Positions 9,170 through 63,349 are shown, counted from the stretch's first letter. The stretch is 64,000 bases of DNA from Methanobacteriota archaeon (GCA_002698225.1 NZWD01000004.1:20090-84089); one strand, 5' to 3'. The notes: a model not told the origin generated them from the letters alone. Translations and numbers: made by a program.

Positions 9170-10048
9170 TCAATTCCTGCGCAAAGCCATCAGTTCGTCA
9201 GTAGACAGTGTGTCTCCCGACATCAGCCTGGACATCAGATCCGTGACTTCGAGCTTCTCCTCATCGCCCGCGTCTTCTGACTTCTTATCTCTGGAATCCA
9301 TGGCTCTCATCATGTCCACGATGGAATGAATACACCTCAGAGAGACGATATATTGTGAGTGCAATGCATCCGCCTCTCTTTTGGATTTGTTCAACTCTCC
9401 ATGTGCTGAGTTTGCCTTCTCCCTGAGCCTATCAACCTCTTCAGACAATTCCACCATTAGGTCATGAGACTCCTGCGCTCTTCCAACTGAAATCTCAACG
9501 GATTTGTGAGCTTCCTCCTGTGAGGCCTCGGCAACTCTGACAGCATCCTTCAGTTCCCTCATTCCGCCACCGCCTCTCTCTTTCTCCGCGCTTTTTAGCG
9601 CCTCTGAGAGTTGCTTCATTTTCTTGTGATAATCGCGCTCTCTCTTGCCTAGGAACTGGCCGGTCATATACTGTTTTTCTAGCCTCTCCATGTCCGACCT
9701 TATCTTGCCTGGAGGGGGGCCTCTTGAACGCTTAGAGTTGGCTCCAGAATCTCCTTGCTCAGCGAGTTTTTCCCTGAGTTCATCACGAACCAACTTGAGA
9801 TGCTTAGATTTTTCAGCACGAATTTCCTTCAGTTCCTTGACTCTGCTATTGATTTCATCCCTAACGGACTTCTGTGACTGGACCTCATTGATGAGCTCCT
9901 TTACTTGACGATTAACCTCATTTCTCTCGTCTAGGTGTTGTCTTACCTCTGCATTCCAATGGTCTCTCTCGTCCTTGTTCAATTCGGACTTCTGGACCAT
10001 AGTCTCAGATAGTGGCTGGAGAATAAGCCGGACTTCGTCAAATTCCAC
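9170..10048 (-). CDS. coiled-coil protein, paralog 1 (COG1340-like archaeal coiled-coil family, assignment tentative)
   Basis: 292 aa, highly charged with strong heptad character ('ERNEVNRQVKELINEVQSQKSVRDEINSRVKELKEIRAEK'), and a Gly-rich break in the middle. Confidence 0.6.
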   Translation of the reverse strand: MEFDEVRLILQPLSETMVQKSELNKDERDHWNAEVRQHLDERNEVNRQVKELINEVQSQKSVRDEINSRVKELKEIRAEKSKHLKLVRDELREKLAEQGDSGANSKRSRGPPPGKIRSDMERLEKQYMTGQFLGKRERDYHKKMKQLSEALKSAEKERGGGGMRELKDAVRVAEASQEEAHKSVEISVGRAQESHDLMVELSEEVDRLREKANSAHGELNKSKREADALHSQYIVSLRCIHSIVDMMRAMDSRDKKSEDAGDEEKLEVTDLMSRLMSGDTLSTDELMALRRN

Positions 10049-10108
10049 TATCTCACCTCATCGCCCTCGAACAGGATTCCTCATTTAGGCGTGATGGAAG
10101 CGTCGATG

Positions 10109-11086
10109 CTACTCATCAACCTCCCTCTTAGCGGCGAGAGAACCTCTGCGAGCACCACCTCTAGTGACACCTAGACGCATACCCTTACGCTTCGTCCTCT
10201 TATGTTCAGACTCGACCTTGGATGACGATGACTCATCTTTCGACTCAGTTAGTTCACTCAACTTGGCAGAGCCCAGAAGTGTCTCTAGTTCACTGACATC
10301 CAGAGTACCGCCAGTTTGAGCTCTCTCCTTGATGTCTGATAGCTTGATTGGTCGGCCACCTATGGTGGTTGCCTTCTGGTAGGTCTTGACTCTTCCCAGA
10401 CTGCTCCTTATCTGCTTTCTTTCGGACTTGAGGCGATCTAGTTGCTTGTCTATCTTGCTTATTCTCTTGCTGATTTTCCTGATTTCCGATCTAGATATTC
10501 CGGATTGACTATCAGACTCATCAGATTCTCCTTGTTCGGAGTTTGTTGCAGATTTCTTCGTCTCGTCGAGTTGTGAAGTGATTTCACGCATTCGCTTTAT
10601 CTGCTTGACATATTCCTTGTGAAAACTCTCAGATTCACCTTTCATTGCAATTGCAGACTGCAACTCAAAGAATCGTGAGAAGGAATCCAATTCCCTGGCG
10701 AGAGTTGGAACAGTAGTGAGGTCATTATCTAGGGTAGTCAGTCTACTATGAGTATCGCTCAACCATTCGCATAGTACCTCGATAGGAGGGGGAATTCTAC
10801 TATTCACCTCATCTCTCCCTCTACGGGCTTTATCCGCAGCCTTCCTGACAGAATGGAATTTCCCCAGCAAGACCCTCCTTGCACCACTCACCTGCTCCAT
10901 CTCGCCAACAGCGGTACGAATTGAGCGAACTAGGCTGACTTGATTGCGACGCTCGCCACGCAAGTCTGAATGCTGCCTCTCAACGGATTTTAGATTTCGA
11001 TCTAAGTCCTTTCTCATTCCCTCGATTTCAAAATGATCCATTTCCTCCAAATCTTCGAAGTGTCTAGAGTCAGGAGATTTACTCAT
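10109..11086 (-). CDS. coiled-coil protein, paralog 2
   Basis: 325 aa with the same charged heptad-repeat composition and a C-terminal basic/Gly tail 'KRTKRKGMRLGVTRGGARRG'. It lies in tandem with the neighbouring paralogs. Confidence 0.6.
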   Translation of the reverse strand: MSKSPDSRHFEDLEEMDHFEIEGMRKDLDRNLKSVERQHSDLRGERRNQVSLVRSIRTAVGEMEQVSGARRVLLGKFHSVRKAADKARRGRDEVNSRIPPPIEVLCEWLSDTHSRLTTLDNDLTTVPTLARELDSFSRFFELQSAIAMKGESESFHKEYVKQIKRMREITSQLDETKKSATNSEQGESDESDSQSGISRSEIRKISKRISKIDKQLDRLKSERKQIRSSLGRVKTYQKATTIGGRPIKLSDIKERAQTGGTLDVSELETLLGSAKLSELTESKDESSSSKVESEHKRTKRKGMRLGVTRGGARRGSLAAKREVDE

Positions 11087-11910
11087 TCCTCTTCACCTTC
11101 CCGTACCTGGGCCGATCCAGTCTTCCGACTACGGGCGAAAGATGACCTTCCTCCTGAGGAAACCCTGTTGCTGGCCGCCATTAGATCACGGAATCCGCCT
11201 CCCAACTCGCCGAATCCACTTTCCATTCTCTTTTGCCAGTGCTCGATGGCCGCATCAGACTGCTCAAAGAGCTCTCGTGCCCGGTCCATCTGTCTGCGAA
11301 TCTCGCGTAATTCTGCGGTCAGCAAGACCTTCTTATCATGCAGTGGTTGAGCCTTTGATACCGCTTCTAGCATCTTACTGTGAGCCCCATCTGCTTTACG
11401 ATATGACGATACCATATCCCTTCTGGAGTCTATGAATCTAGACATTTCCGGATTAGCATCCCTCCTCGATTTGAGCCATTTTTCGTTCTCCCCAAGGAGC
11501 TTCTTCCTACGGTCCAGAAGCTTTCTCTCCGATCGGTGATCCAGTGCCGAAGTCTGAATCTTATCTTCGATTTCCTCGAGTTCATCAAGCAACTTCTCCT
11601 TCTTCCAATTAGGATCTAGGTTGACCATGCCTCCTGTCTTAATCAGACTGTCTCTGGAATCCTTGACATCTCTGAGTAATTTCGTTGCCTTACTCTGCGA
11701 TAGATTCCTCTCTTCTTTGTACTTGGCGACCATGCCGTTAGCCTTGCGATGAGACTCAACAGCCCTTTTGACTCGTGGCTCTAGAGATTCCTCCTCAGCT
11801 TCGAGATTTCTGATGACGTTGGGGAGCTCTTGTTTGAGCACTTCGCGCCTTACTAGTAGGGCCTGCGCTAACTGCTCCGGACCTATCGCTAACAGCTCGT
11901 CGACCTCCAT
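11083..11910 (-). CDS. coiled-coil protein, paralog 3
   Basis: 275 aa of charged coiled-coil sequence. It overlaps paralog 2 by 4 nt (translational coupling) and ends with a Gly/Ser-rich tail. Confidence 0.6.
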   Translation of the reverse strand: MEVDELLAIGPEQLAQALLVRREVLKQELPNVIRNLEAEEESLEPRVKRAVESHRKANGMVAKYKEERNLSQSKATKLLRDVKDSRDSLIKTGGMVNLDPNWKKEKLLDELEEIEDKIQTSALDHRSERKLLDRRKKLLGENEKWLKSRRDANPEMSRFIDSRRDMVSSYRKADGAHSKMLEAVSKAQPLHDKKVLLTAELREIRRQMDRARELFEQSDAAIEHWQKRMESGFGELGGGFRDLMAASNRVSSGGRSSFARSRKTGSAQVREGEEE

Positions 11911-11940
11911 GGCGTCCGGGGCACAGGAGAATCTGCATTA

Positions 11941-11959
11941 AAGGTCACTATGTGACCTT
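11941..11959. promoter_or_regulatory. perfect 19-bp palindrome AAGGTCAC-TAT-GTGACCTT; candidate operator in a divergent promoter region
   Basis: Read directly from the sequence: an 8-3-8 inverted repeat sitting 45 bp upstream of the 12004 start codon. It lies between divergently transcribed coiled-coil genes (minus strand) and an operon that contains a DtxR-family regulator. Confidence 0.4.
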
Positions 11960-12003
11960 GGAAAGGGGTTTCCTTCATACATCGAATAACTACTAGGTGT
12001 ACG

Positions 12004-13560
12004 ATGGTTTACCGGGCACCAGCCAGCAGGGCGCTACTCGCAATCCTGTTTTCTCTATCTTTGCTAGCATCTCCTGTATCCGCAGATGGGGAGAAGATGT
12101 TCACGCCGGCTGGCTCTTCAGATGTAGCCATCTCTGGAGAGCCGATTCATGTTGGAGATGCTGTATTAGTATCAATTTTGGTCCATAATCAGGGCTCTGA
12201 GTCAGGATCTGTGAGGTTGGAGCTCACTGGCTCCGGCGGTGAAAATCTATCAGTAGGAACAGAGACTGAAATCAACCCCGGCTCTAGCAGGGAGGTCATT
12301 GCTGAATTCACTCCCTCGATTGCAGGACTGATGGATGTCAATTGGGAAGTGACCAGCGATGATGGAGGAGTCTCATCAGAACTCAAAGGAACATTTGAAC
12401 TCCAAGTAATAGAGAGCCAGTCTATATCTCTCACATTTGAATCGACAGTATGGACTCTGTCCGACGGTCTTGAATGCGATTTCACAATCACCCTTTCTGA
12501 AGGCAAATCCCGTCTAATTGAGGTATCCATCTCGTTACTTGGATCAGGAGAATCTACGATAGTGCAGAATTTCGAAATCTTACTGAACCCCGGCGTCCGT
12601 TCTTTGGAAGCATCCCTGGGGCAACCAGATATTACTGGGATTTCAATCACCGTGTCTGCCAAGGGATGGGGAATCGCCAATTCTCCTGCTAACCTCTCAT
12701 GGGACAATCCTGTATCTCCCCCCGTAGTATCGCCCTCAGTTTCAATTGGCCCCTATCAGCCCGAGTCTCCTAAGCCCGGAGACACCATATCAATGGATTA
12801 TACCCTTGCAAATTCGGGCGACTCCTCAACTCTACCAGGTACGCTGAGTTTCATCAGCAACTCTGATGGAGGGATGATTCTAGCTCAGATACCAGTCTCA
12901 GCAATCTCGGCAGGAGGATCTTCATCTGGCACAATAAGCATAGGTCCGTGGCCAGACTCTCGGGTGGTCGAGGCAGAATTAATCTGGTCTATGGCTGGTT
13001 CTTCGGCCATCAGCCCCCTCTCAATCTCCTCTGACATGCCTACAGATACGGGCCTAGAGCTACCCTTCGATGTCATGGCTGCAATCTATGGTGCCATAGT
13101 CGGTTTTGCCGTGGTCCTAGTTGGATTAATCGTACTAAGGGCAGTCTCTGAGCGCACCCCTAGCACTGAGTCTGAGGATAGTGTGCTTAGAGAATCGCGC
13201 ATATCTATGAGACAGGAGTCGTCGTCAGAGAAAATTGAGGTTCCATGCCCGAGTTGCCAGCAGAGACTCAAGATTCCATTTTCTCACTCGGGGATGGTCA
13301 AATGCCCAGCCTGCAACAGTCAATTCCATACTTCTCCTCCTGAAGAAACGGAGAAATCTCAATCAAACCCTCCCAGTCAATCTGGTCCCGAGCCGGCAAC
13401 TCAATCCGATACCGCTTCTTCGATTGCCACCGTGGTATCTTCAGAGGATGAGCTCCCATGTCCCGAGTGCCAGCAGATGCTCAGAATACCAATAGATAGG
13501 AGACCAGTGCACTCTAGGTGCCCGGCGTGCAGGACCGAATTCCTGGCTGAAGTAGGGTGA
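12004..13560 (+). CDS. single-pass membrane protein with extracellular CARDB-like beta-sandwich repeats and cytoplasmic tandem zinc ribbons
   Basis: N-terminal signal peptide 'LLAILFSLSLLASPVSA'. CARDB-like segments ('HVGDAVLVSILVHNQGSESGSVRLEL'). One TM helix ('AAIYGAIVGFAVVLVGLIVL'). Two C-terminal CPxC...CPxC zinc ribbons ('CPSCQQ...CPACNSQF', 'CPECQQ...CPACRTEF'). Confidence 0.7.
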   Translation: MVYRAPASRALLAILFSLSLLASPVSADGEKMFTPAGSSDVAISGEPIHVGDAVLVSILVHNQGSESGSVRLELTGSGGENLSVGTETEINPGSSREVIAEFTPSIAGLMDVNWEVTSDDGGVSSELKGTFELQVIESQSISLTFESTVWTLSDGLECDFTITLSEGKSRLIEVSISLLGSGESTIVQNFEILLNPGVRSLEASLGQPDITGISITVSAKGWGIANSPANLSWDNPVSPPVVSPSVSIGPYQPESPKPGDTISMDYTLANSGDSSTLPGTLSFISNSDGGMILAQIPVSAISAGGSSSGTISIGPWPDSRVVEAELIWSMAGSSAISPLSISSDMPTDTGLELPFDVMAAIYGAIVGFAVVLVGLIVLRAVSERTPSTESEDSVLRESRISMRQESSSEKIEVPCPSCQQRLKIPFSHSGMVKCPACNSQFHTSPPEETEKSQSNPPSQSGPEPATQSDTASSIATVVSSEDELPCPECQQMLRIPIDRRPVHSRCPACRTEFLAEVG

Positions 13561-13564
13561 TATT

Positions 13565-14221
13565 ATGATTGAGTTGAGCGAGTTCGAGGAGATGTATCTG
13601 AAAAGACTCTTCGAGGCCCATGCAGACGACCCCGCAATGATTGTGAAGACGACTAAACTGGCCGAAATGATGGATGTGAGTCCGGCTTCAACCACTGAGA
13701 TGATTCAGAGGCTCGCCAAGCGTAATCTAGTCACCCACGTACCCTACAAAGGCTGTAGACTGACTCCAGAAGGCTTTCAGCAGGCTGCGATGATTAAGCG
13801 CAGAGAAGGGCTGATAGAGATACTTCTTACTGAGGTAATCGGATATGAGGGAAGTGTCAATGAGGCTGCCTGTAAAATTGAGCATGCAATCGATGAGGAG
13901 TTAGAAATTGCCCTAGATCGCATGCTCGGTTACCCTGAGAAGACCCCTAGCGGCGACAGAATACCAGTCATAGAGAGACAAATTGAACCTATGCGAACTG
14001 GGCTACTAATTCCTCTCAGTGCGCTACCGATAGGTAGCAAGGCTACCATTGAGCTGATTGTCATGCGACCAACCGATTCACGTACAGTCGAGTTAGCCGG
14101 ACTTGGGGTTGGGACTGAGGTTGAGTCAAAGAGCGATGGAATCTACTCCTCAAATCAAAAGTTGGAGATGTCAAAATCAATGTCCCTGAGAATCCTCGCT
14201 AGGACCGAGCAGGTGATGTAA
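13565..14221 (+). CDS. DtxR/MntR-family metal-dependent transcriptional regulator with a C-terminal FeoA/SH3-like domain
   Basis: N-terminal winged HTH, a dimerisation helix carrying conserved metal ligands ('ACKIEH' = Cys/Glu/His of the DtxR primary site), and a C-terminal SH3-like domain. There is a 5-nt gap to the upstream gene. Confidence 0.8.
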   Translation: MIELSEFEEMYLKRLFEAHADDPAMIVKTTKLAEMMDVSPASTTEMIQRLAKRNLVTHVPYKGCRLTPEGFQQAAMIKRREGLIEILLTEVIGYEGSVNEAACKIEHAIDEELEIALDRMLGYPEKTPSGDRIPVIERQIEPMRTGLLIPLSALPIGSKATIELIVMRPTDSRTVELAGLGVGTEVESKSDGIYSSNQKLEMSKSMSLRILARTEQVM

Positions 14222-15780
14222 TGGAGAACCAAGAAGATCTTGATTCTCTGGCCGATTCAATCGGTGATGTAGTTCTGCCAGCGCCGGAAATTCAAAATCA
14301 AGCCCCGATTGTTTCCGTTGAGAATGATAGAAGCAAGGACAGAATCAAACTACTTCGCTCCAGAGAGGAGATGCTACTGAGAATCGACAGAATGCTAATC
14401 AGCAGCGGAGCGAGATTAGTCCTCTTCCTGCCCCTAGTCGTGATTATTCTATACGGGCTTGCACAGGCGTTCTCGCAAGGTGACCCAGAATGGTGGACAA
14501 ACCACTTGGAATCTGTGGCTTGGGGCTCAGATATCTCCACTGCAATATACGGGCTTTCAATGCTGATGCTGATTGCAGATTCAGCAATGCTACTCTTGCT
14601 GTTCTGGCTCATGTCAATTACTCGATCAATCTTCTCAATGGAATCGAGTGAATTGACTAGGCTGGGCCTGACCTTCAAGAGCTCACATGGGTACGCTGAG
14701 ATGAGGGCCACGATTGATGGCGCCATCAGACAACTGGGTATCACAACGGCCCTAATTTCTCTTGCTGCGATATTGCTCGGAATCTCAATGTGGCTCCCTG
14801 AGGACAGCGCAGGAACGCCATTCATGCTCGCACTCTCAACTGGAGCCTTGCTCAGCGGCCACGGTGTGCACATGGTCTCAGAACGCTCTAGATTCAACAC
14901 TAGCGAGCCGTGGGGTATGCTGCAAGCCTTCTCACCGCCAATTCATCCCGCTCTGCTGAACCGCCCATTCACCGATGTAATTCGCGCACATGTCGACCCT
15001 CTGTTAGCAGTCAGGATGTCAGAGTACCTCTCTTCCATAGAACCCTCGATTAAGGAAGGCAGCAGTGTGAGGGAGTTGCAAGAGACTCTTCTACATCTAC
15101 TGTATCTCCGAAGATCTTCACTAATCGATGAGGATCTGTTCAGATCTGCTCTAGAGCCCATGCTCGATCCCCCAGCCATTGAGCGCCTGTTCAACCATCC
15201 AGAACTAGGCGAAGAGACATGGGATAGACTTCTATCAAGAGCACGCTCTCAATGCGCGCCTTTCTTCCGTATCCATGATCGCTTGAGGATGAGCAGGTCG
15301 GCTACCGAATCTACCGGCGAAGTCTGGCTGGATGTGGACATGGAGAACTTAGTAGTCGGTCAGGCCAACCTATTCGCATTTGTATTAAATCAAGGAGAAT
15401 CTCCACTGGATTTGGTACTTAGAGTCCAGACTCCAGATTTCAGACCCCAGGAATGTGTTTATCGGTTGAATGCAGAACCAATGAGGGTTGACTCCGAACC
15501 TGTCGGAGATGAACTCTACTCGGCTTTACCCGCGCTGATGTCCTCTACTCGGATAATCTGGCAGAGCTTGCTGCCTTCTGCCATGGGTGAGGCTACAGTT
15601 ACACTACGACTCGAGGACGAGGCTGGGAACCTAATTTCGGGGAGAGTATTGGCTGTTCAGGTACGCCCTGATTTGCTGACCCGGGTTAGAATGTCTCTTG
15701 GAGGATTGTTCATGTTCGGAGCAGCAATCGTAGTCATCTCACCATTTGTACCATTCCTGATCAATCTAGTAGGACTTTGA
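14221..15780 (+). CDS. polytopic membrane protein, hypothetical
   Basis: Its start overlaps the regulator stop (ATGTAATGG). Four to five N-terminal TM helices, a ~300-aa soluble domain and a C-terminal TM helix. No family recognised. Confidence 0.55.
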   Translation: MENQEDLDSLADSIGDVVLPAPEIQNQAPIVSVENDRSKDRIKLLRSREEMLLRIDRMLISSGARLVLFLPLVVIILYGLAQAFSQGDPEWWTNHLESVAWGSDISTAIYGLSMLMLIADSAMLLLLFWLMSITRSIFSMESSELTRLGLTFKSSHGYAEMRATIDGAIRQLGITTALISLAAILLGISMWLPEDSAGTPFMLALSTGALLSGHGVHMVSERSRFNTSEPWGMLQAFSPPIHPALLNRPFTDVIRAHVDPLLAVRMSEYLSSIEPSIKEGSSVRELQETLLHLLYLRRSSLIDEDLFRSALEPMLDPPAIERLFNHPELGEETWDRLLSRARSQCAPFFRIHDRLRMSRSATESTGEVWLDVDMENLVVGQANLFAFVLNQGESPLDLVLRVQTPDFRPQECVYRLNAEPMRVDSEPVGDELYSALPALMSSTRIIWQSLLPSAMGEATVTLRLEDEAGNLISGRVLAVQVRPDLLTRVRMSLGGLFMFGAAIVVISPFVPFLINLVGL

Positions 15781-15819
15781 TTCAGGTCCATTCAAAGGTG
15801 ATGCCCTTGTGGTGCAACT

Positions 15820-16800
15820 GTGTCTGAAGACGGCTCTATCCAGAGTGATGACCTCAGGACCAGGCTGCACGCAATGGAGACTAAATTGCGTAGGATGCGT
15901 GAGCAGAGGGGCAATCACAACGAGAACGCCAAGAGGGCTGCGGATTCGAGAGACTCTGTGCAGAACCAGGGCAAGGAGCTAAGGGAACGAATCGGAGAGA
16001 GATTAGAGGCCCAGAAGGAAGTCAGAACTAGGGCCAAAACACATCAGGCCAAGCGTGACGAGATTCAGAAGCAGATTGGTGAATTAATCTCCCAGAAGAG
16101 AGGTAGGAAGAGAGATGGCGGGACCAAGTCAGTCGTGATTCAACTATCAGAGACCATTGGAGAGATTGATCGAATAGAGAACCAGATTATGACTGATGGA
16201 AACCTATCTCTCAAGAAGGAAAACCGCTTACTGAAGAAACTAAAAACTCTGATTTCGAAGAGGGACGAGTTAATGCCCGAGGTTCAGGAACTACAAGTCA
16301 TTGAAATCGATCTAGGCGATATGGAGGGCTCAATCCAACTTCTCCGTTCTGAGGCTGACGCTGAGCACAAAGCGATGCTTGAAGCCAACAAGGAGGCTGA
16401 TGAGATATGGGAAGAAGTCAAGCCAATGCTCGAGGAACGTGATTTCCTCAGAGCGGAGGGCGATAGGCTCCACGCTGCATTTGTCTCATCTAGAGAATCT
16501 GCAGACAATGTCCACTCTGGCATTAAGGAATTGTTAGATCAGGTCAATGAGATTCGTGATGAACTGAAGGCTCAGAGAGAGGAGAGAGAGCGGATTATCA
16601 GGGAACATAACGAATCTGTGAGAATGGCTACCAAGACTCCGGATGAAGACGAAGAGTTAGCCGACTCACTAACTGAGCAACTACTAGAGAGTGGCTCCAT
16701 CACTCTGGGTGGTACCAGGGCAGAAATCTCCGAGAGAGAATCTCCCCGCAAAAGGAAGAAGTCACGCAGACTGGGAACAACTAGGGGCAAGCGGGACTGA
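15820..16800 (+). CDS. coiled-coil protein, paralog 4
   Basis: 326 aa of charged heptad-repeat protein similar in composition to the three minus-strand paralogs, with a basic C-terminal tail 'PRKRKKSRRLGTTRGKRD'. Confidence 0.6.
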   Translation: MSEDGSIQSDDLRTRLHAMETKLRRMREQRGNHNENAKRAADSRDSVQNQGKELRERIGERLEAQKEVRTRAKTHQAKRDEIQKQIGELISQKRGRKRDGGTKSVVIQLSETIGEIDRIENQIMTDGNLSLKKENRLLKKLKTLISKRDELMPEVQELQVIEIDLGDMEGSIQLLRSEADAEHKAMLEANKEADEIWEEVKPMLEERDFLRAEGDRLHAAFVSSRESADNVHSGIKELLDQVNEIRDELKAQREERERIIREHNESVRMATKTPDEDEELADSLTEQLLESGSITLGGTRAEISERESPRKRKKSRRLGTTRGKRD

Positions 16801-17793
16801 TTACCAACCACGCTCTTCCATTCGGACTTCGAGTTTGTCTATCTCCAAACCATCCATTGGTTTCCCTGCCATCATAGCAGAAGCCTCGGTGACCTTACTG
16901 GGATCATTAAAGTGATGAGTTGACATTACTATTGCTGAAGCAGTCGTGGCTGGATCCTCGGACTTGAAAATTCCTGATCCTACAAATACACCGTCCATCC
17001 CGTGACGCATCAACAGGGCTGCATCGGCTGGTGTAGCTATTCCTCCTGCAGAAAATGTCACGACAGGTAATCTCCCCATCTCCTTCACTTCTCCCAGAAC
17101 TTCCACGATGGCATCGTGACAAGCATCCATGCTTCCAAAGGGCGTGTTTTCGACAATGAGTTCATGCTCACTGGCTTGCTCTATTCTACGGAAGCCGTCG
17201 GACATCTTGCGAGCCATGACCTCAAACTCAACATCGTTTGCACTCTGTAGAAGAGCAATCTCCTGAGATACCAACCTAGCGTGTTGGATAGCACTGACGA
17301 CATTTCCCGTTCCGGCTTCCCCCTTGGTGCGAATCATCGCTGCACCTTCCATGATTCTTCTGCATGCCTCGCCTAGGCTAGTACATCCACAAACAAATGG
17401 AATGGTGAATTCATTCTTGGTTATGTGATAGAAAGGATCTGCCGGAGTTAGTACTTCGCTCTCATCCACCATGTCGACACCGAGTTCTTGGAGGACACGA
17501 GCCTCTTCGTCATGTCCAATCCTAGCCTTTGCCATTACAGGGATACTGGTGGTCTCAATAATTCCTCTGATTAGTTTTGGGTGGCTCATTCTAGCCACGC
17601 CTCCATCAGACCTGATGTCTGCAGGTACCCTTTCGAGGGCCATTACTGCTGTTGCACCTGCATCTTCAGCGATGTGAGCTTGCTCAGGAGTGACGACATC
17701 CATTATGACGCCACCCTCCTGCATCTTGGCGAAACCTCTCTTTAGCAACTCAGTGCCATGTCTCATCTTGTTGAGGTCTACCAGTCTGGCCAC
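16801..17793 (-). CDS. pdxS: pyridoxal 5'-phosphate synthase subunit PdxS (Pdx1)
   Basis: Full-length match to the PdxS pattern: '[13 protein letters not shown]', '[11 protein letters not shown]', 'GEAGTGNVV' and '[12 protein letters not shown]'. Confidence 0.9.
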
Positions 17794-18168: not shown

Positions 18169-18609
18169 TCATGCTTTTTCTATTAGTTCATGAATCAATC
18201 CGGTAGCTACCGACTCTACTTCTTGACCGGGATAGGACTCTACCTTGAAACATCCTTTCGCAGTAGCCTCTGAGCTATCATCGCTCACTATTGTGACTTC
18301 CCCACAGACCAATTCTGCTAGAGAGATTCTGATGTGCAGAACCTTGTCTTCGTCTAGTCTGTTTGAGATTCCATTTTCTAGTAGGTTCCGTAACCCTTCT
18401 CCTCCCAATCTGGAAAGCGAATACGCAGATGCCTTCCTACCTGAGATGCTAGCCTCAATGATAGTCTGCTCTGAACCATGCCAAGATTTGCCTTTCTCCA
18501 TGTTGACTTCACATCCTTCACCAGTCAGCCAGCGCAAACCCTGCTCAATAAGGGAGACATCATCGACAGCGCTGGCATGCACTCTCCAGCGTGCGCTATG
18601 CAGTCCCAT
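18169..18609 (-). CDS. hypothetical protein
   Basis: 146-aa ORF of compact size and no recognisable motifs. Confidence 0.4.
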   Translation of the reverse strand: MGLHSARWRVHASAVDDVSLIEQGLRWLTGEGCEVNMEKGKSWHGSEQTIIEASISGRKASAYSLSRLGGEGLRNLLENGISNRLDEDKVLHIRISLAELVCGEVTIVSDDSSEATAKGCFKVESYPGQEVESVATGLIHELIEKA

Positions 18610-18743
18610 GGTTGGAGCAGAAAAGCCCTCGACTTAATGCTCTCCTGCCGCAGCATCCACATTCCTTCGAGGCTTTGGTTCATATACTCGGGGTAGGTGG
18701 CACGGCCCGCATACGAGGTAGCCCTCGGCAGGAGTCCAATGTC

Positions 18744-19766
18744 ATGGCAAAGGGAGCAGCAGCCAGGGCAGCGGCACGCAGGCAGCGCGACAAGTGGAAG
18801 TCGAAGCGTTGGTACAGCATCAGAGCCCCTAGGAACCCCTGGGCATTCAAGATCATCGGCGAGACCATGGCCGAAGAAGAAGAGATGCTCCTCGGGCGAC
18901 ATTATGAGATTCTACAGTACGAGTTGGACGGCGATTTCTCCAAGATGAATGTCAAGGTCCAATTCAGAATCCACGATGTCATAGGCTCAGATGCACTAAC
19001 TGAGTATATCGGGCACGAGCTTCTGAAGGATCATATCCGCAGACAGGTCCGTAGAGACCGAGGCAAGATTGACGATACTGTTGATCTAGTTACCAAGGAC
19101 GGCTATTATATCAGAGTCAAGCCGATGATGATTACACGCAACAAAATCAAGGCTAGCCAGAAACAAGAGATTAGATCTCAGGCTAGAGATTTGATAATCA
19201 AGTTCGGTGCCACCACCACATGGGTCGACATGCAAAAAGCAACTCTCGATGGAACTCTCGAGACGCAGATTCGAGAGATTGCATCCAAGATCCAACCCGT
19301 TAGGGATGTCATGATTAGGAGAGTGCAACTAATCCAATCTGGCGTTGAAGTCGGTGACGGACCTACTCTCGAGGAGATAATCTCCCAGGAGGAAGAGGTC
19401 AAGCAGGCCGAGACTGTTGAAGAAGACTCAGAGGGAATCTTAGAGACTATTTCGGATGCTGTGGATGATGTGGTCGACGAAATTAAGGAGGCTGCTACAG
19501 AGGTAGCCGGCGAACTAGCCATAGGTTCGGGCACGACAGCAGTTGATGCGGCCGTCGAAGGTACAATTGAGATAGCCGAAGAAGTGGTCGAATCCGTAAA
19601 AGAAGTCGCTGAGGCTGTGAAAGAGGAAGTCTCCGAGACTATCAGCGGAGACTCAGATACTGACTACGAGTCGATGACGGTCGCCGAATTGAAGGTTCTA
19701 CTGAAGGACGCCGGCAAACCGGTCTCGGGCAAGAAGGCCGAGCTGATTGAGCGCCTCAAGGAGTGA
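18744..19766 (+). CDS. rps3ae: 30S ribosomal protein S3Ae (S1e) fused to an acidic linker and a C-terminal SAP domain
   Basis: From the ATG at 18744: 'MAKGAAARAAARRQRDKWKSKRWYSIRAP...' is the S3Ae N-terminus and core. The C-terminal ~140 aa are Glu/Asp/Val-rich and end in 'MTVAELKVLLKDAGKPVSGKKAELIERLKE', a SAP (LxxLL...G.K..L..RL) motif. Confidence 0.8.
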   Translation: MAKGAAARAAARRQRDKWKSKRWYSIRAPRNPWAFKIIGETMAEEEEMLLGRHYEILQYELDGDFSKMNVKVQFRIHDVIGSDALTEYIGHELLKDHIRRQVRRDRGKIDDTVDLVTKDGYYIRVKPMMITRNKIKASQKQEIRSQARDLIIKFGATTTWVDMQKATLDGTLETQIREIASKIQPVRDVMIRRVQLIQSGVEVGDGPTLEEIISQEEEVKQAETVEEDSEGILETISDAVDDVVDEIKEAATEVAGELAIGSGTTAVDAAVEGTIEIAEEVVESVKEVAEAVKEEVSETISGDSDTDYESMTVAELKVLLKDAGKPVSGKKAELIERLKE

Positions 19767-62734: not shown

Positions 62735-63349
62735 GTGATGCCTACTGGATGTATCATGACTTACGAGTTACCCGACCTGCCTTACGACTACGATGCACTA
62801 GAGCCCCATATTGACGCACTAACTATGGAGATTCACCATTCCAAACATCACAATGCATACACAAACAATCTCAATGCTGCCATCGATGCAAATGGAATCC
62901 CTGACATGCCTATCTCTGACCTTCTCAGAAATCACTCTGACATAGCAGGAATCAGAAATAATGGCGGCGGGTGGTGGAACCACTGCCAGTTTTGGGAGGC
63001 CATGTCACCTGATGGCGGAGGAACCCCTTCCGGAGATCTTGCTACAGCAATAGACGCCGCCTTCGGCTCCTTCGAGGAATTCAAGGCCGTTTTCCAGAAC
63101 GCGGGCATGACTCAATTCGGTAGTGGGTGGGCATGGCTCGGTGTCAAGGATGGCGTATTGTGCGTTTGCTCCAGCCCCAATCAAGATAATCCCTTGATGG
63201 ATGGATGCTGCTCACCCATTCTTGGCCTTGATGTTTGGGAGCATGCTTACTACAAGAAGTACGGGCCCGGTAGAGCCACCTATGTCGAAGCATGGTGGAA
63301 TGTCGTCGATTGGAATGAGATTTCCCGCAGATTATCGGATGCCCTCTGA
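62735..63349 (+). CDS. sod: Fe/Mn superoxide dismutase
   Basis: 'YELPDLPYDYDALEPHID...EIHHSKHH' and 'DVWEHAYY' metal-ligand motifs. Confidence 0.9.
   Translation: MMPTGCIMTYELPDLPYDYDALEPHIDALTMEIHHSKHHNAYTNNLNAAIDANGIPDMPISDLLRNHSDIAGIRNNGGGWWNHCQFWEAMSPDGGGTPSGDLATAIDAAFGSFEEFKAVFQNAGMTQFGSGWAWLGVKDGVLCVCSSPNQDNPLMDGCCSPILGLDVWEHAYYKKYGPGRATYVEAWWNVVDWNEISRRLSDAL

Follow-up and report, generated by a model that had tools for sequence, protein, structure and literature searches.

What does a metal-sensing regulator control when its gene lies between two membrane-protein genes, and does either membrane protein control it in return? The question is raised by four genes (g1 to g4) at positions 12004-16800 of a window of 64,000 nt from a Marine Group II (MGII) archaeon (Ca. 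Thalassarchaeum). A first-pass annotation had read them as a candidate transmembrane signalling module encoded by a tight operon. ORF calling confirmed four co-directional genes on the plus strand at these coordinates. Reading the sequence directly, we found the g1-g2 junction to be TGA-tatt-ATG, a gap of 4 nt instead of the 5 nt described, whereas the overlap of g2 with g3 (TAATG; 1 nt) and the 39-nt gap between g3 and g4 were as reported. A Shine-Dalgarno-like GGTG(A) precedes every start codon by 4-8 nt, and small gaps and overlaps between the genes recur in orthologous loci. The start/stop overlap implies that g2 is co-transcribed with the membrane-protein genes, and g1-g2-g3-g4 is a real operon. 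A divergent operon lies opposite, consisting of ccC-ccB-ccA in the window and of ccC with other genes in MGIIa.

The co-conservation anticipated for the operon was recovered in both MGIIb and MGIIa. The divergent DUF7121 gene ccC and the g1-g2-g3-g4 core occur together at 84 related MGIIb loci, and the same arrangement is present at 3 MGIIa loci with rearranged flanks. Synteny within MGIIb is little informative, because the entire 20-kb neighbourhood is collinear there; all 80 MGIIb species share one gene order from rpoA'' to mtap. In MGIIa, g4 is followed by an inserted NTP-transferase gene, a 694-aa gene stands in place of ccB and the rpo operon is relocated. Despite these rearranged immediate flanks, the order g1-g2-g3 and the tight junctions persist. 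No description of this gene combination was found in the literature: the cluster is undescribed, and it is conserved across the entire Marine Group II order. Comparison of the cluster with the PADLOC anti-phage defence models returned weak coiled-coil and zinc-ribbon noise alone (E >= 1e-4).

The first gene, g1 (12004-13560, plus strand; 518 aa), encodes a type-I membrane protein with a hydrophobic N-terminal signal peptide, a CARDB/Ig-like ectodomain, a single TM helix spanning residues 353-384 (nt 13060-13155) and, on the cytoplasmic side, a tail. This is the single-pass layout originally proposed, with the ectodomain outside and CPxC...CPxC ribbons at the cytoplasmic C terminus. Pfam CARDB (PF07705) matches in two stretches (32.8 bits; gathering cut-off 22.7). 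Three CARDB-like repeats had been claimed; two are supported, residues 32-128 and 239-348 matching one another at an hhalign probability of 80%, but the middle segment is not. The CxxC motifs lie at residues 415, 434, 486 and 506. Exactly four such motifs follow the TM helix in all ~80 g1 orthologues, MGIIa included, and the motifs flanking them are invariant too. They belong to two putative zinc ribbons conserved in MGIIa and MGIIb. Ribbon 1 (13237-13326, plus strand; CxxC 415 and 434) follows the pattern E(I/V)xCPxCxQRLx(I/V)PxxHxGxVxCPxCxxxF and reached a pLDDT of 81-89 even in a single-sequence model. Ribbon 2 (13453-13548, plus strand; CxxC 486 and 506) follows LxCPxCxQxLxVPxxxRPVxxRCPACxxEFxA. 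The cysteines are invariant, but the Pfam DZR score of 21.5 bits (best stretch residues 482-512) is under the cut-off of 27.3. Other ribbon families (Zn_ribbon_4/5, MJ0042_CXXC) match the tail more weakly, all below their curated cut-offs, and the orthologues give faint Zn_ribbon_4 matches. Ectodomain length ranges from ~350 to 680 aa among orthologues while the zinc ribbons stay invariant, and the tail is much more conserved than the ectodomain. Residues that never vary in the ectodomain are Gly, Trp, Pro, Asn, Asp, Ser, Leu, Gln and Arg; His, Cys and Met are absent from this set. The linker is proline-rich in the window protein; many orthologues are without this feature.

The product of g2 (13565-14221, plus strand; 218 aa) is a metalloregulator of the DtxR/IdeR family, in line with the DtxR-type repressor first proposed, and probably has three domains. 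The two DtxR Pfam domains each clear their threshold: the winged HTH (Fe_dep_repress, PF01325; residues 4-63; 54.7 bits versus 26) and the dimerization/metal domain (Fe_dep_repr_C, PF02742; residues 67-134; 63.8 bits versus 27). The FeoA/SH3-like domain also attributed to it gave no Pfam FeoA match at E<1, and a search of the isolated C terminus against the PDB found nothing. The g2 orthologue profile, however, aligns over its full length to three-domain relatives (residues 1-210 to DtxR 1-221, 8-212 to ScaR 4-211 and 7-215 to T. acidophilum IdeR 29-237), which supports an SH3-like third domain at ~145-215. The primary metal site comprises M10, C103, E106 and H107, aligned to the DtxR ligands M10, C102, E105 and H106. 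C103, E106 and H107 do not vary among 16 orthologues, whereas M10 is shared by MGIIb and gives way to Glu in MGIIa. The primary site is of DtxR/IdeR type, unlike the Asp/Glu Mn-type site of DR2539 (10.1101/2024.02.12.579695). Of the DtxR ancillary-site ligands, the window protein retains only E83, with E in place of H79 and N in place of H98; the histidines are retained in some orthologues and in MGIIa. The Mn-type residues D126/H128/D130 of DR2539 correspond to T/S/D in g2. Judged from its residues, g2 looks like a conventional divalent-metal sensor that would need no partner for metal sensing.

The third gene, g3 (14221-15780, plus strand; 519 aa), encodes a 5-TM protein of an uncharacterized family, and the description of a polytopic protein with a large soluble domain holds. 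Four N-terminal TM helices (~57-219) and one at the C terminus (485-518) frame a helical domain (249-360) and an Ig/CARDB-like beta-sandwich (368-481); this soluble part is predicted to be cytoplasmic. A Pfam search with g3 matched no family and no known fold relative was found, the TM part resembling generic four-helix bundles only. MGIIa g3 proteins are 26-35% identical to that of the window. H242, D259 and E288 are invariant from MGII to Asgard archaea, and the TM helices contain no polar or charged residue conserved across the family. Outside MGII the family is otherwise confined to Asgard archaea, with homologues at five loci that have no DtxR, CARDB or DUF7121 neighbour and no consistent metal-related context.

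The fourth gene, g4 (15820-16800, plus strand; 326 aa, GTG start), encodes a coiled-coil protein, as annotated, of DUF7121 type and with a basic C-terminal KRKKSRRLGTTRG tail. The coiled-coil 'paralogs' mentioned in the first-pass annotation are the three opposite-strand genes at 9170-11910. The first gene of this divergent operon, ccC (11083-11910, minus strand; 275 aa), adjoins g1 in both MGIIa and MGIIb, and its product has an acidic GEEE C terminus. ccB (10109-11086, minus strand; 325 aa; MGIIb) encodes a coiled-coil protein with a basic C-terminal RLGVTRG tail. The last gene, ccA (9170-10048, minus strand; 292 aa), encodes a DUF7121 coiled-coil protein whose C-terminal motif DLMSRLMSGDTLSTDELMxLQR is kept in MGIIa and MGIIb. 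Against DUF7121 (PF23435; cut-off 29 bits), ccA scores above the threshold (46.5 bits) and g4 below it (22.2 bits), and ccB and ccC of the window give no match; orthologues of ccA, g4 and ccC carry precomputed PF23435 assignments. ccA and g4 also match each other in BLASTP (E=5e-7). The acidic and basic tails of the coiled-coil proteins are complementary. No mention of DUF7121 was found in the literature searched. Residual distance correlations of 0.52-0.62 link g3-g4, g3-ccA and g4-ccA (highest test-versus-control value 0.44). No residual co-variation was detected between the g1 tail and g2, or between either and g3 (values <= 0.20), nor between g2 and the other cluster proteins.

A perfect 19-bp palindrome, AAGGTCAC-TAT-GTGACCTT (11941-11959), lies in the divergent promoter and is a candidate operator. 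It is identical and in the same position in ~50 MGIIb species, where the flanking proteins are 40-60% identical. Different dyads occupy this position in other clades and in MGIIa, where they are again perfect; several MGIIb clades have a degenerate dyad or none. Within the window, at least one match at <=3 mismatches arose in 30 of 100 shuffles; the significance of the palindrome derives wholly from cross-species conservation. A TATA-like box, TTTAATG (11936-11942, minus strand), is located ~28 nt upstream of the ccC start and may act as its promoter element; this region (CATTA[AT]AG) is conserved in all MGIIb clades. A further conserved block, GGGGTTTCCTTCATAC (consensus GGGTTTGATTSATAC; 11965-11980, plus strand), begins the g1 side of the region ~24 nt before the start codon and may be a core promoter for g1 or part of its 5' leader.

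Several features count against reading the dyad as a g2 site. It is degenerate or missing in several MGIIb clades, and it is unlike the boxes of the family: the DtxR/IdeR box is less GC-rich and has differently spaced half-sites. The palindrome also differs in sequence and half-site spacing from the Haloferax TroR motif (TTTAGGC-NNN-CCTAAA; 10.1101/2023.08.16.553580), and is again GC-richer. The g2 recognition helix SPASATEMIQRL pairs with the dyad AAGGTCAC...GTGACCTT at one locus (L031) and with ACCCACCC...GGGTGGGT at another (L088). One helix thus accompanies two different dyads, and protein-site co-variation is absent.

The explanation we favour, tentatively and at somewhat under an even chance, is that g2 is a conventional metal sensor regulating both operons, and that the other products are regulated, not regulating, and probably make up an envelope scaffold. 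A metal-loaded g2 dimer would bind in the shared 93-bp promoter region, with the dyad at 11941-11959 as the prime candidate site, and would set the expression of both operons, its own gene included. The g1 product would be a surface protein of Ig repeats that evolves fast, and the conserved double zinc ribbon on its cytoplasmic side may serve as a docking module; g1, g3 and the coiled-coil proteins would probably assemble at the cell envelope into a scaffold associated with the membrane.

The position of g2 could instead reflect a frozen gene order, with g2 acting as a general Fe/Mn regulator of MGII on targets elsewhere and the dyad belonging to another factor. This fits the collinearity from rpoA'' to mtap, the resemblance of g2 to an ordinary DtxR/IdeR protein and its lack of co-variation with its neighbours, as well as a dyad that neither looks like known DtxR-family boxes nor co-varies with the recognition helix. 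We nevertheless consider it an unlikely, if serious, alternative: g1-g2-g3 order and tight junctions outlast the MGIIa flank rearrangement, the start/stop overlap implies co-transcription with the membrane-protein genes, and regulators encoded within an operon usually act on it. DtxR-family genes also typically adjoin metal transporter genes, which favours a novel metal-handling system in which g1 and g3 take up, export or store metal under DtxR-type control, as in classical transporter operons. That possibility appears very improbable. The TroR regulon (10.1101/2023.08.16.553580), the invariant H242, D259 and E288 of g3 and a solved CARDB domain that binds di-metal ions (3idu) are in its favour, but neither g1 nor g3 matches a Pfam or NCBIfam transporter, and no transporter family was matched elsewhere in the window. 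Moreover, the g3 TM helices match generic four-helix bundles only and offer no family-wide polar or charged residue, His, Cys and Met are missing from the invariant part of the g1 ectodomain, and the Asgard g3 loci have no consistent metal-related setting; four coiled-coil proteins would be left unexplained.

The signalling proposal itself takes the form of a membrane-gated metalloregulator, in which the g1 tail or the cytoplasmic domain of g3 sequesters or releases g2 on an extracellular cue, with the coiled-coil genes as output. A canonical Mn/Fe transporter beside the regulator, which the first-pass annotation took as the mark of simple metal homeostasis, was not found in the 64-kb window or at ~90 related loci. 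The translational coupling of g2 between both membrane-protein genes, the g1-g2-g3 order common to MGIIa and MGIIb, a g1 tail conserved far above the ectodomain and a g3 soluble domain predicted to share the cytoplasm with g2 all suit such gating. DtxR SH3-like domains bind proline-rich peptides, and the g1 linker of the window would offer one, but many orthologues lack it. The claim that a membrane protein controls the repressor finds nothing to show for it: g2 carries its own complete primary metal site, and it co-varies with neither the g1 tail nor g3, which do not co-vary with each other either. Asgard g3 homologues occur without any DtxR, the zinc-binding anti-sigma (ZAS) motif is absent, and we know of no sigma/anti-sigma pairs in archaea. 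We therefore regard gating as improbable, and assign a similarly low likelihood to the wider envelope-cytoplasm module in which g1 ribbons and/or g3 gate the DtxR regulator and the four DUF7121-type coiled-coils form a regulated submembrane scaffold.

Marine Group II archaea rank with the most abundant surface-ocean microbes, and iron is a key limiting factor in the ocean. To our knowledge no member of the group has been cultured, and we are aware of almost nothing on their gene regulation or the construction of their cell envelope. The locus offers a concrete handle: a standard-looking iron/manganese sensor, a candidate operator under sharp conservation, and a conserved group of membrane and coiled-coil proteins that are probably under the control of this sensor. 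If the metal link is true, iron/manganese supply would be tied to envelope or scaffold proteins, not to transporters. Should membrane proteins gate g2, this would be a new mode of control for a DtxR-family regulator, and the full gated module would tie together an external signal, metal status and the architecture of the cell envelope in the archaea that are most abundant in the plankton. The restriction of the 5-TM g3 family to MGII and Asgard archaea is an unexplained distribution that merits phylogenetic attention.

Among known systems, the first-pass annotation had likened the locus to bacterial anti-sigma/transducer logic. Like ZAS anti-sigma factors (RsrA/RslA/ChrR-like), g1 is single-pass, with a cytoplasmic cysteine-rich zinc module, a sensor-like domain outside and a regulator gene adjacent, but the likeness is one of layout only. 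ZAS proteins carry HxxxCxxC in an N-terminal cytoplasmic domain and pair with an adjacent ECF sigma factor; g1 has no HxxxCxxC, its pair of CPxC...CPxC ribbons (MJ0042/DZR-like) is C-terminal to a secreted ectodomain, and its neighbour g2 should sense metal unaided. The locus encodes no sigma factor, as archaea use TBP/TFB, and we rejected the analogy. Double zinc-ribbon membrane proteins of MJ0042/DZR type share the CPxC-(14-16)-CPxC spacing and weak family matches with g1, whose ribbons, by contrast, score below the cut-offs and stand in tandem C-terminal to a CARDB ectodomain; these families have no known function, so the comparison gives no mechanism.

The closest parallel to g2 lies in DtxR/IdeR/MntR operons (C. 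diphtheriae DtxR, M. tuberculosis IdeR, T. acidophilum IdeR, Haloferax TroR, A. fulgidus MDR1), whose regulators have the three-domain build that is probable for g2. It also has the primary-site ligands Met, Cys, Glu and His and a dyad in the promoter in common with DtxR/IdeR regulators, although the DtxR ancillary-site histidines are replaced in the window protein. MDR1-type regulators sit inside operons they could autoregulate, and g2 likewise lies inside an operon open to autoregulation. Where DtxR/IdeR operons carry metal transporter or siderophore genes, however, that of g2 encodes Ig-repeat/zinc-ribbon, 5-TM and coiled-coil proteins instead. DUF7121 is a known family of archaeal coiled-coil proteins, to which ccA belongs by its score and g4 and ccC are linked through their orthologues; a single regulator surrounded by four coiled-coil genes, of which three are DUF7121, is peculiar to this locus.

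The four co-directional genes g1-g4 occupy positions 12004-16800 on the + strand, and open reading frames were found exactly where the first-pass annotation had placed them. They encode a CARDB/zinc-ribbon membrane protein (g1, 12004-13560, 518 aa), a DtxR/IdeR-type regulator (g2, 13565-14221, 218 aa), a 5-TM protein (g3, 14221-15780, 519 aa) and a DUF7121-type coiled-coil protein (g4, 15820-16800, 326 aa, GTG start). Read from the sequence, the g1/g2 junction (TGA-tatt-ATG) measures 4 nt and not 5 nt as first described; the overlap of g2 and g3 (1 nt, TAATG) and the 39-nt gap between g3 and g4 stand. GGTG(A) lies 4-8 nt 5' of every g1-g4 start codon. Separated from g1 by 93 bp, a divergent operon on the - strand carries three coiled-coil genes, ccC (11083-11910), ccB (10109-11086) and ccA (9170-10048). 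At the other end, the g4 stop codon (TGA, +) abuts that of the convergent pdxS (TAA, -) without a spacer (16798-16803), leaving no space for a terminator between the two genes.

Housekeeping genes surround the cluster, with rpoB, rpoA' and rpoA'' annotated upstream and pdxS, ferredoxin, S3Ae-SAP, MTAP-like phosphorylase, DHFR and thymidylate synthase genes downstream. The S3Ae-SAP gene (18591-19766) encodes ribosomal protein S3Ae with a C-terminal SAP domain (PF02037, 47.8 bits) behind an acidic linker. This fusion recurs in related loci of both MGIIb, the Marine Group II branch that holds the window, and MGIIa (Poseidoniaceae).

In the regulator g2, both DtxR Pfam domains exceed their cut-offs. 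Its residues M10, C103, E106 and H107 align with the primary-site ligands M10, C102, E105 and H106 of DtxR, and Glu and Asn stand in place of the ancillary residues H79 and H98. C103, E106 and H107 are invariant among 16 orthologues; at position 10, MGIIb proteins have Met and MGIIa proteins Glu. The best PDB match is the structure of DR2539, a Mn sensor with an Asp/Glu site (10.1101/2024.02.12.579695), from which the DtxR/IdeR-type metal site of g2 differs. The DtxR-type assignment thus holds; of the FeoA/SH3-like domain proposed with it, Pfam FeoA was not detected in g2, but a putative SH3-like third domain is supported by the orthologue profile, which aligns end to end with the three-domain DtxR, ScaR and T. 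acidophilum IdeR.

The g1 protein has an N-terminal hydrophobic signal and a single TM helix (353-384), followed by a tail of ~135 aa with CxxC motifs at residues 415, 434, 486 and 506. It matches Pfam CARDB significantly (32.8 bits; cut-off 22.7). Of the three CARDB-like repeats originally described, residues 32-128 and 239-348 align with each other (hhalign probability 80%), and the middle segment found no support. The two proposed zinc ribbons fall under the Pfam DZR cut-off (21.5 bits against 27.3), yet in all ~80 orthologues, MGIIa included, exactly four CxxC motifs follow the TM helix, within the conserved patterns CPxCxQRLxVPxxHxGxVxCPxC..F and CPxCxQxLxVPxxxRPVxxRCPAC..F. No other part of the cluster is conserved as little as the g1 ectodomain: identity is 34-42% in most MGIIb species that do not belong to the window's genus, and its length among orthologues varies between about 350 and about 680 aa. 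A single-sequence structure model of g1 was poor (pLDDT 47).

Profile searches placed g3 in no Pfam or NCBIfam family. In a confident AlphaFold2 model built from an alignment of 65 homologues (pLDDT 86, pTM 0.78), four long TM helices precede a helical domain (249-360), which leads into a beta-sandwich (368-481) and then a C-terminal helix (485-518). From the Lys/Arg distribution around the helices we infer an N-in topology with the soluble domain probably cytoplasmic. Foldseek searches of the PDB with g3 returned nothing beyond generic Ig, macroglobulin or CARDB sandwiches. With 192 cluster representatives among 1.84 billion, the family is small, and it is patchily distributed. Its nearest members carry the names Candidatus Thalassarchaeum, Marine Group II and Poseidoniales, and further clades (P0145, P0154, P0165, P0170) are 20-22% identical. 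Outside Marine Group II, named members come from Asgard archaea only (Loki, Thor, Hod, Heimdall, Hel, Hermod and Wukong), at 17-20% identity with unchanged architecture, and are sometimes tandem duplicates. In five Asgard loci (L085-L087, L211, L212) the context varies, and no DtxR, CARDB/zinc-ribbon or DUF7121 neighbours were found beside g3; the association is therefore specific to Poseidoniales and not intrinsic to the g3 family.

Among the coiled-coil proteins, ccA scores above the cut-off for DUF7121, which we take to be equivalent to COG1340. The g4 score lies below it, the ccC protein of the window has no match, and ccB resembles ccA weakly; precomputed PF23435 matches exist on orthologues of g4, ccC and ccA. 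Each of the four proteins has a conserved C-terminal tail, and the tails vary in charge: that of ccC is an acidic GEEE, g4 and ccB share a basic, K/R-rich RKLG(T/V)(T/S)RG, and ccA terminates in DLMSRLMSGDTLSTDELMxLQR, kept from MGIIa to MGIIb. Such distinct tails suggest that the proteins may form hetero-oligomers or present a short interaction motif.

The seven genes keep their order in 84 MGIIb loci from genomes and metagenomes. Because gene order between rpoA'' and mtap, over the full ~20 kb, is equally collinear in these loci, this synteny is weak evidence by itself, and g2 could merely be hitch-hiking within a frozen gene order. The informative case is MGIIa, where the core is kept and the flanks have changed. 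In three rearranged MGIIa loci, a divergent DUF7121 gene, a g1-like gene, DtxR, g3 and a second DUF7121 gene remain together with small gaps, so the co-conservation expected of the four genes extends to both branches, with MGIIa g3 only 26-35% identical to that of the window. The g1-like protein there (795-856 aa) has faint CARDB and Zn_ribbon_4 matches. Around this core, ccB is replaced by a 694-aa gene and an acetyltransferase gene, the gene next after g4 encodes an NTP-transferase, the orientation of pdxS has changed and, in L089, the rpo operon lies on the opposite side. In these regions of MGIIa (L088 3909-5993; L089 2065-3185 and 3761-5755; L090 3923-6007), the gene behind the ccC-like gene, itself followed by the acetyltransferase gene, encodes a protein of 664-694 aa, whose L088 copy matches TUTase/poly(A)-polymerase-like nucleotidyltransferases. 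L089 also carries Roadblock/LC7-like and KaiC/RecA-like ATPase genes ahead of another DUF7121 gene.

Pairwise protein distances were correlated over 63 loci once the component common to them and six control proteins had been subtracted. Residual correlations reached 0.56-0.62 for g3 with g4, 0.54-0.56 for g3 with ccA, 0.52 for g4 with ccA and 0.58 for ccB with ccC, against a maximum of 0.44 between any test protein and any control. Although this is a crude approach applied to non-independent pairs, it points to g3 and the coiled-coil proteins as a putative functional unit. By the same measure, g2 did not exceed 0.29 and the g1 tail 0.20 with any other protein, giving no hint of a g2/g1-tail pairing.

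The ccC/g1 intergenic region contains a perfect 19-bp palindrome, AAGGTCAC-TAT-GTGACCTT (11941-11959; AAGGTCACTATGTGACCTT), abutting the TATA-like box of ccC. In the window alone it is unremarkable, as 30 of 100 window shuffles contained at least one match at ≤3 mismatches. Across about 50 MGIIb species, however, in spite of protein identities of only 40-60%, the palindrome is the same save for its centre (TAT or TAC), at a fixed distance from the ccC start and inside a conserved block of ~50 nt (11936-11980; [AT]TAAAGGTCACTAYGTGACCTTG....GGGGTTT..TTSATAC). In other MGIIb clades the sequences here differ but share a (C)TATGTG core; some are dyads (TATAGCCC-TATGT-GGGCTATA, for example) and others are not. 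MGIIa loci carry ACCCACCC-TATA-GGGTGGGT or CCCACCC-GAA-GGGTGGG. An RNA element was not favoured (no Rfam match; fold z-score just -2.3); with a stem invariant in about 50 species, no compensatory change can be shown.

We regard the dyad as a candidate operator, for which g2 would be the obvious candidate binder. Three results argue against this assignment. The dyad is unlike what we take to be the DtxR box, and the recognition helix of g2 does not co-vary with it, one helix occurring with different dyads. It is also unlike the motif of TroR, a Haloferax DtxR-family regulator (10.1101/2023.08.16.553580). Third, a regulon scan of metagenome contigs with KAAGGTCACNNNGTGACCTT, built to pass over the canonical locus, was swamped by chance matches: nearly all of the at least 120 loci listed were unrelated (soil, gut and similar), and the only two from Marine Group II among them, L145 and L189, were canonical-locus variants. 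Within the window no further match was found at ≤3 mismatches, including at the Fe/Mn superoxide dismutase gene (62735-63349), 46 kb from g2. The scan also returned a 4-kb levivirus-like RNA phage contig (L198, 1-4053; maturation protein, coat and GDD-replicase-like ORFs) with the palindrome at 135-153, most likely a chance RNA hairpin. An extended inverted repeat, AAAAAATCG-AAGGTCAC-CCA-GTGACCTT-CGATTTTTT, recurs among the matches listed in numerous contigs unrelated to one another, with a GC content of ~58-60% (L091, L098, L109, L125, L127, L132, L136, L150, L160 and others; one is from human gut). It probably represents a terminator-like hairpin conserved within a bacterial lineage.

The best-supported reading, at slightly under even odds, is that of a repressor embedded in, and regulating, an envelope cluster. 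Here g2 would be a conventional, directly metal-sensing DtxR/IdeR-type repressor inside an order-specific, envelope-associated gene cluster, and would probably regulate its own cluster. The remainder would comprise g1, with Ig repeats at the cell surface and a zinc-ribbon tail for docking in the cytoplasm, together with the 5-TM g3 and coiled-coil scaffold proteins. Hitch-hiking of g2 accords with the collinear MGIIb stretch and the low correlations of g2; set against the retained MGIIa core, we consider it unlikely. The first-pass annotation had read the operon as a transmembrane signalling module, with g2 gated at the membrane. That interpretation is supported only in part: its operon, its co-conservation and the lack of an adjoining transporter hold, but nothing observed points to signalling, and with g2 and the g1 tail showing no pairing we judge such gating quite improbable. 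A novel metal-handling system appears slightly more doubtful still. No metal transporter was found in the 64-kb window. An anti-phage defence role was set aside, as PADLOC returned nothing meaningful.

The cluster is not described in the literature searched on DUF7121/PF23435, COG1340 and MGII/Poseidoniales with DtxR or iron, and no known system matches it. In kind, the proposed repressor-regulated envelope cluster resembles other metalloregulator-controlled operons, here with a wholly uncharacterised cargo.
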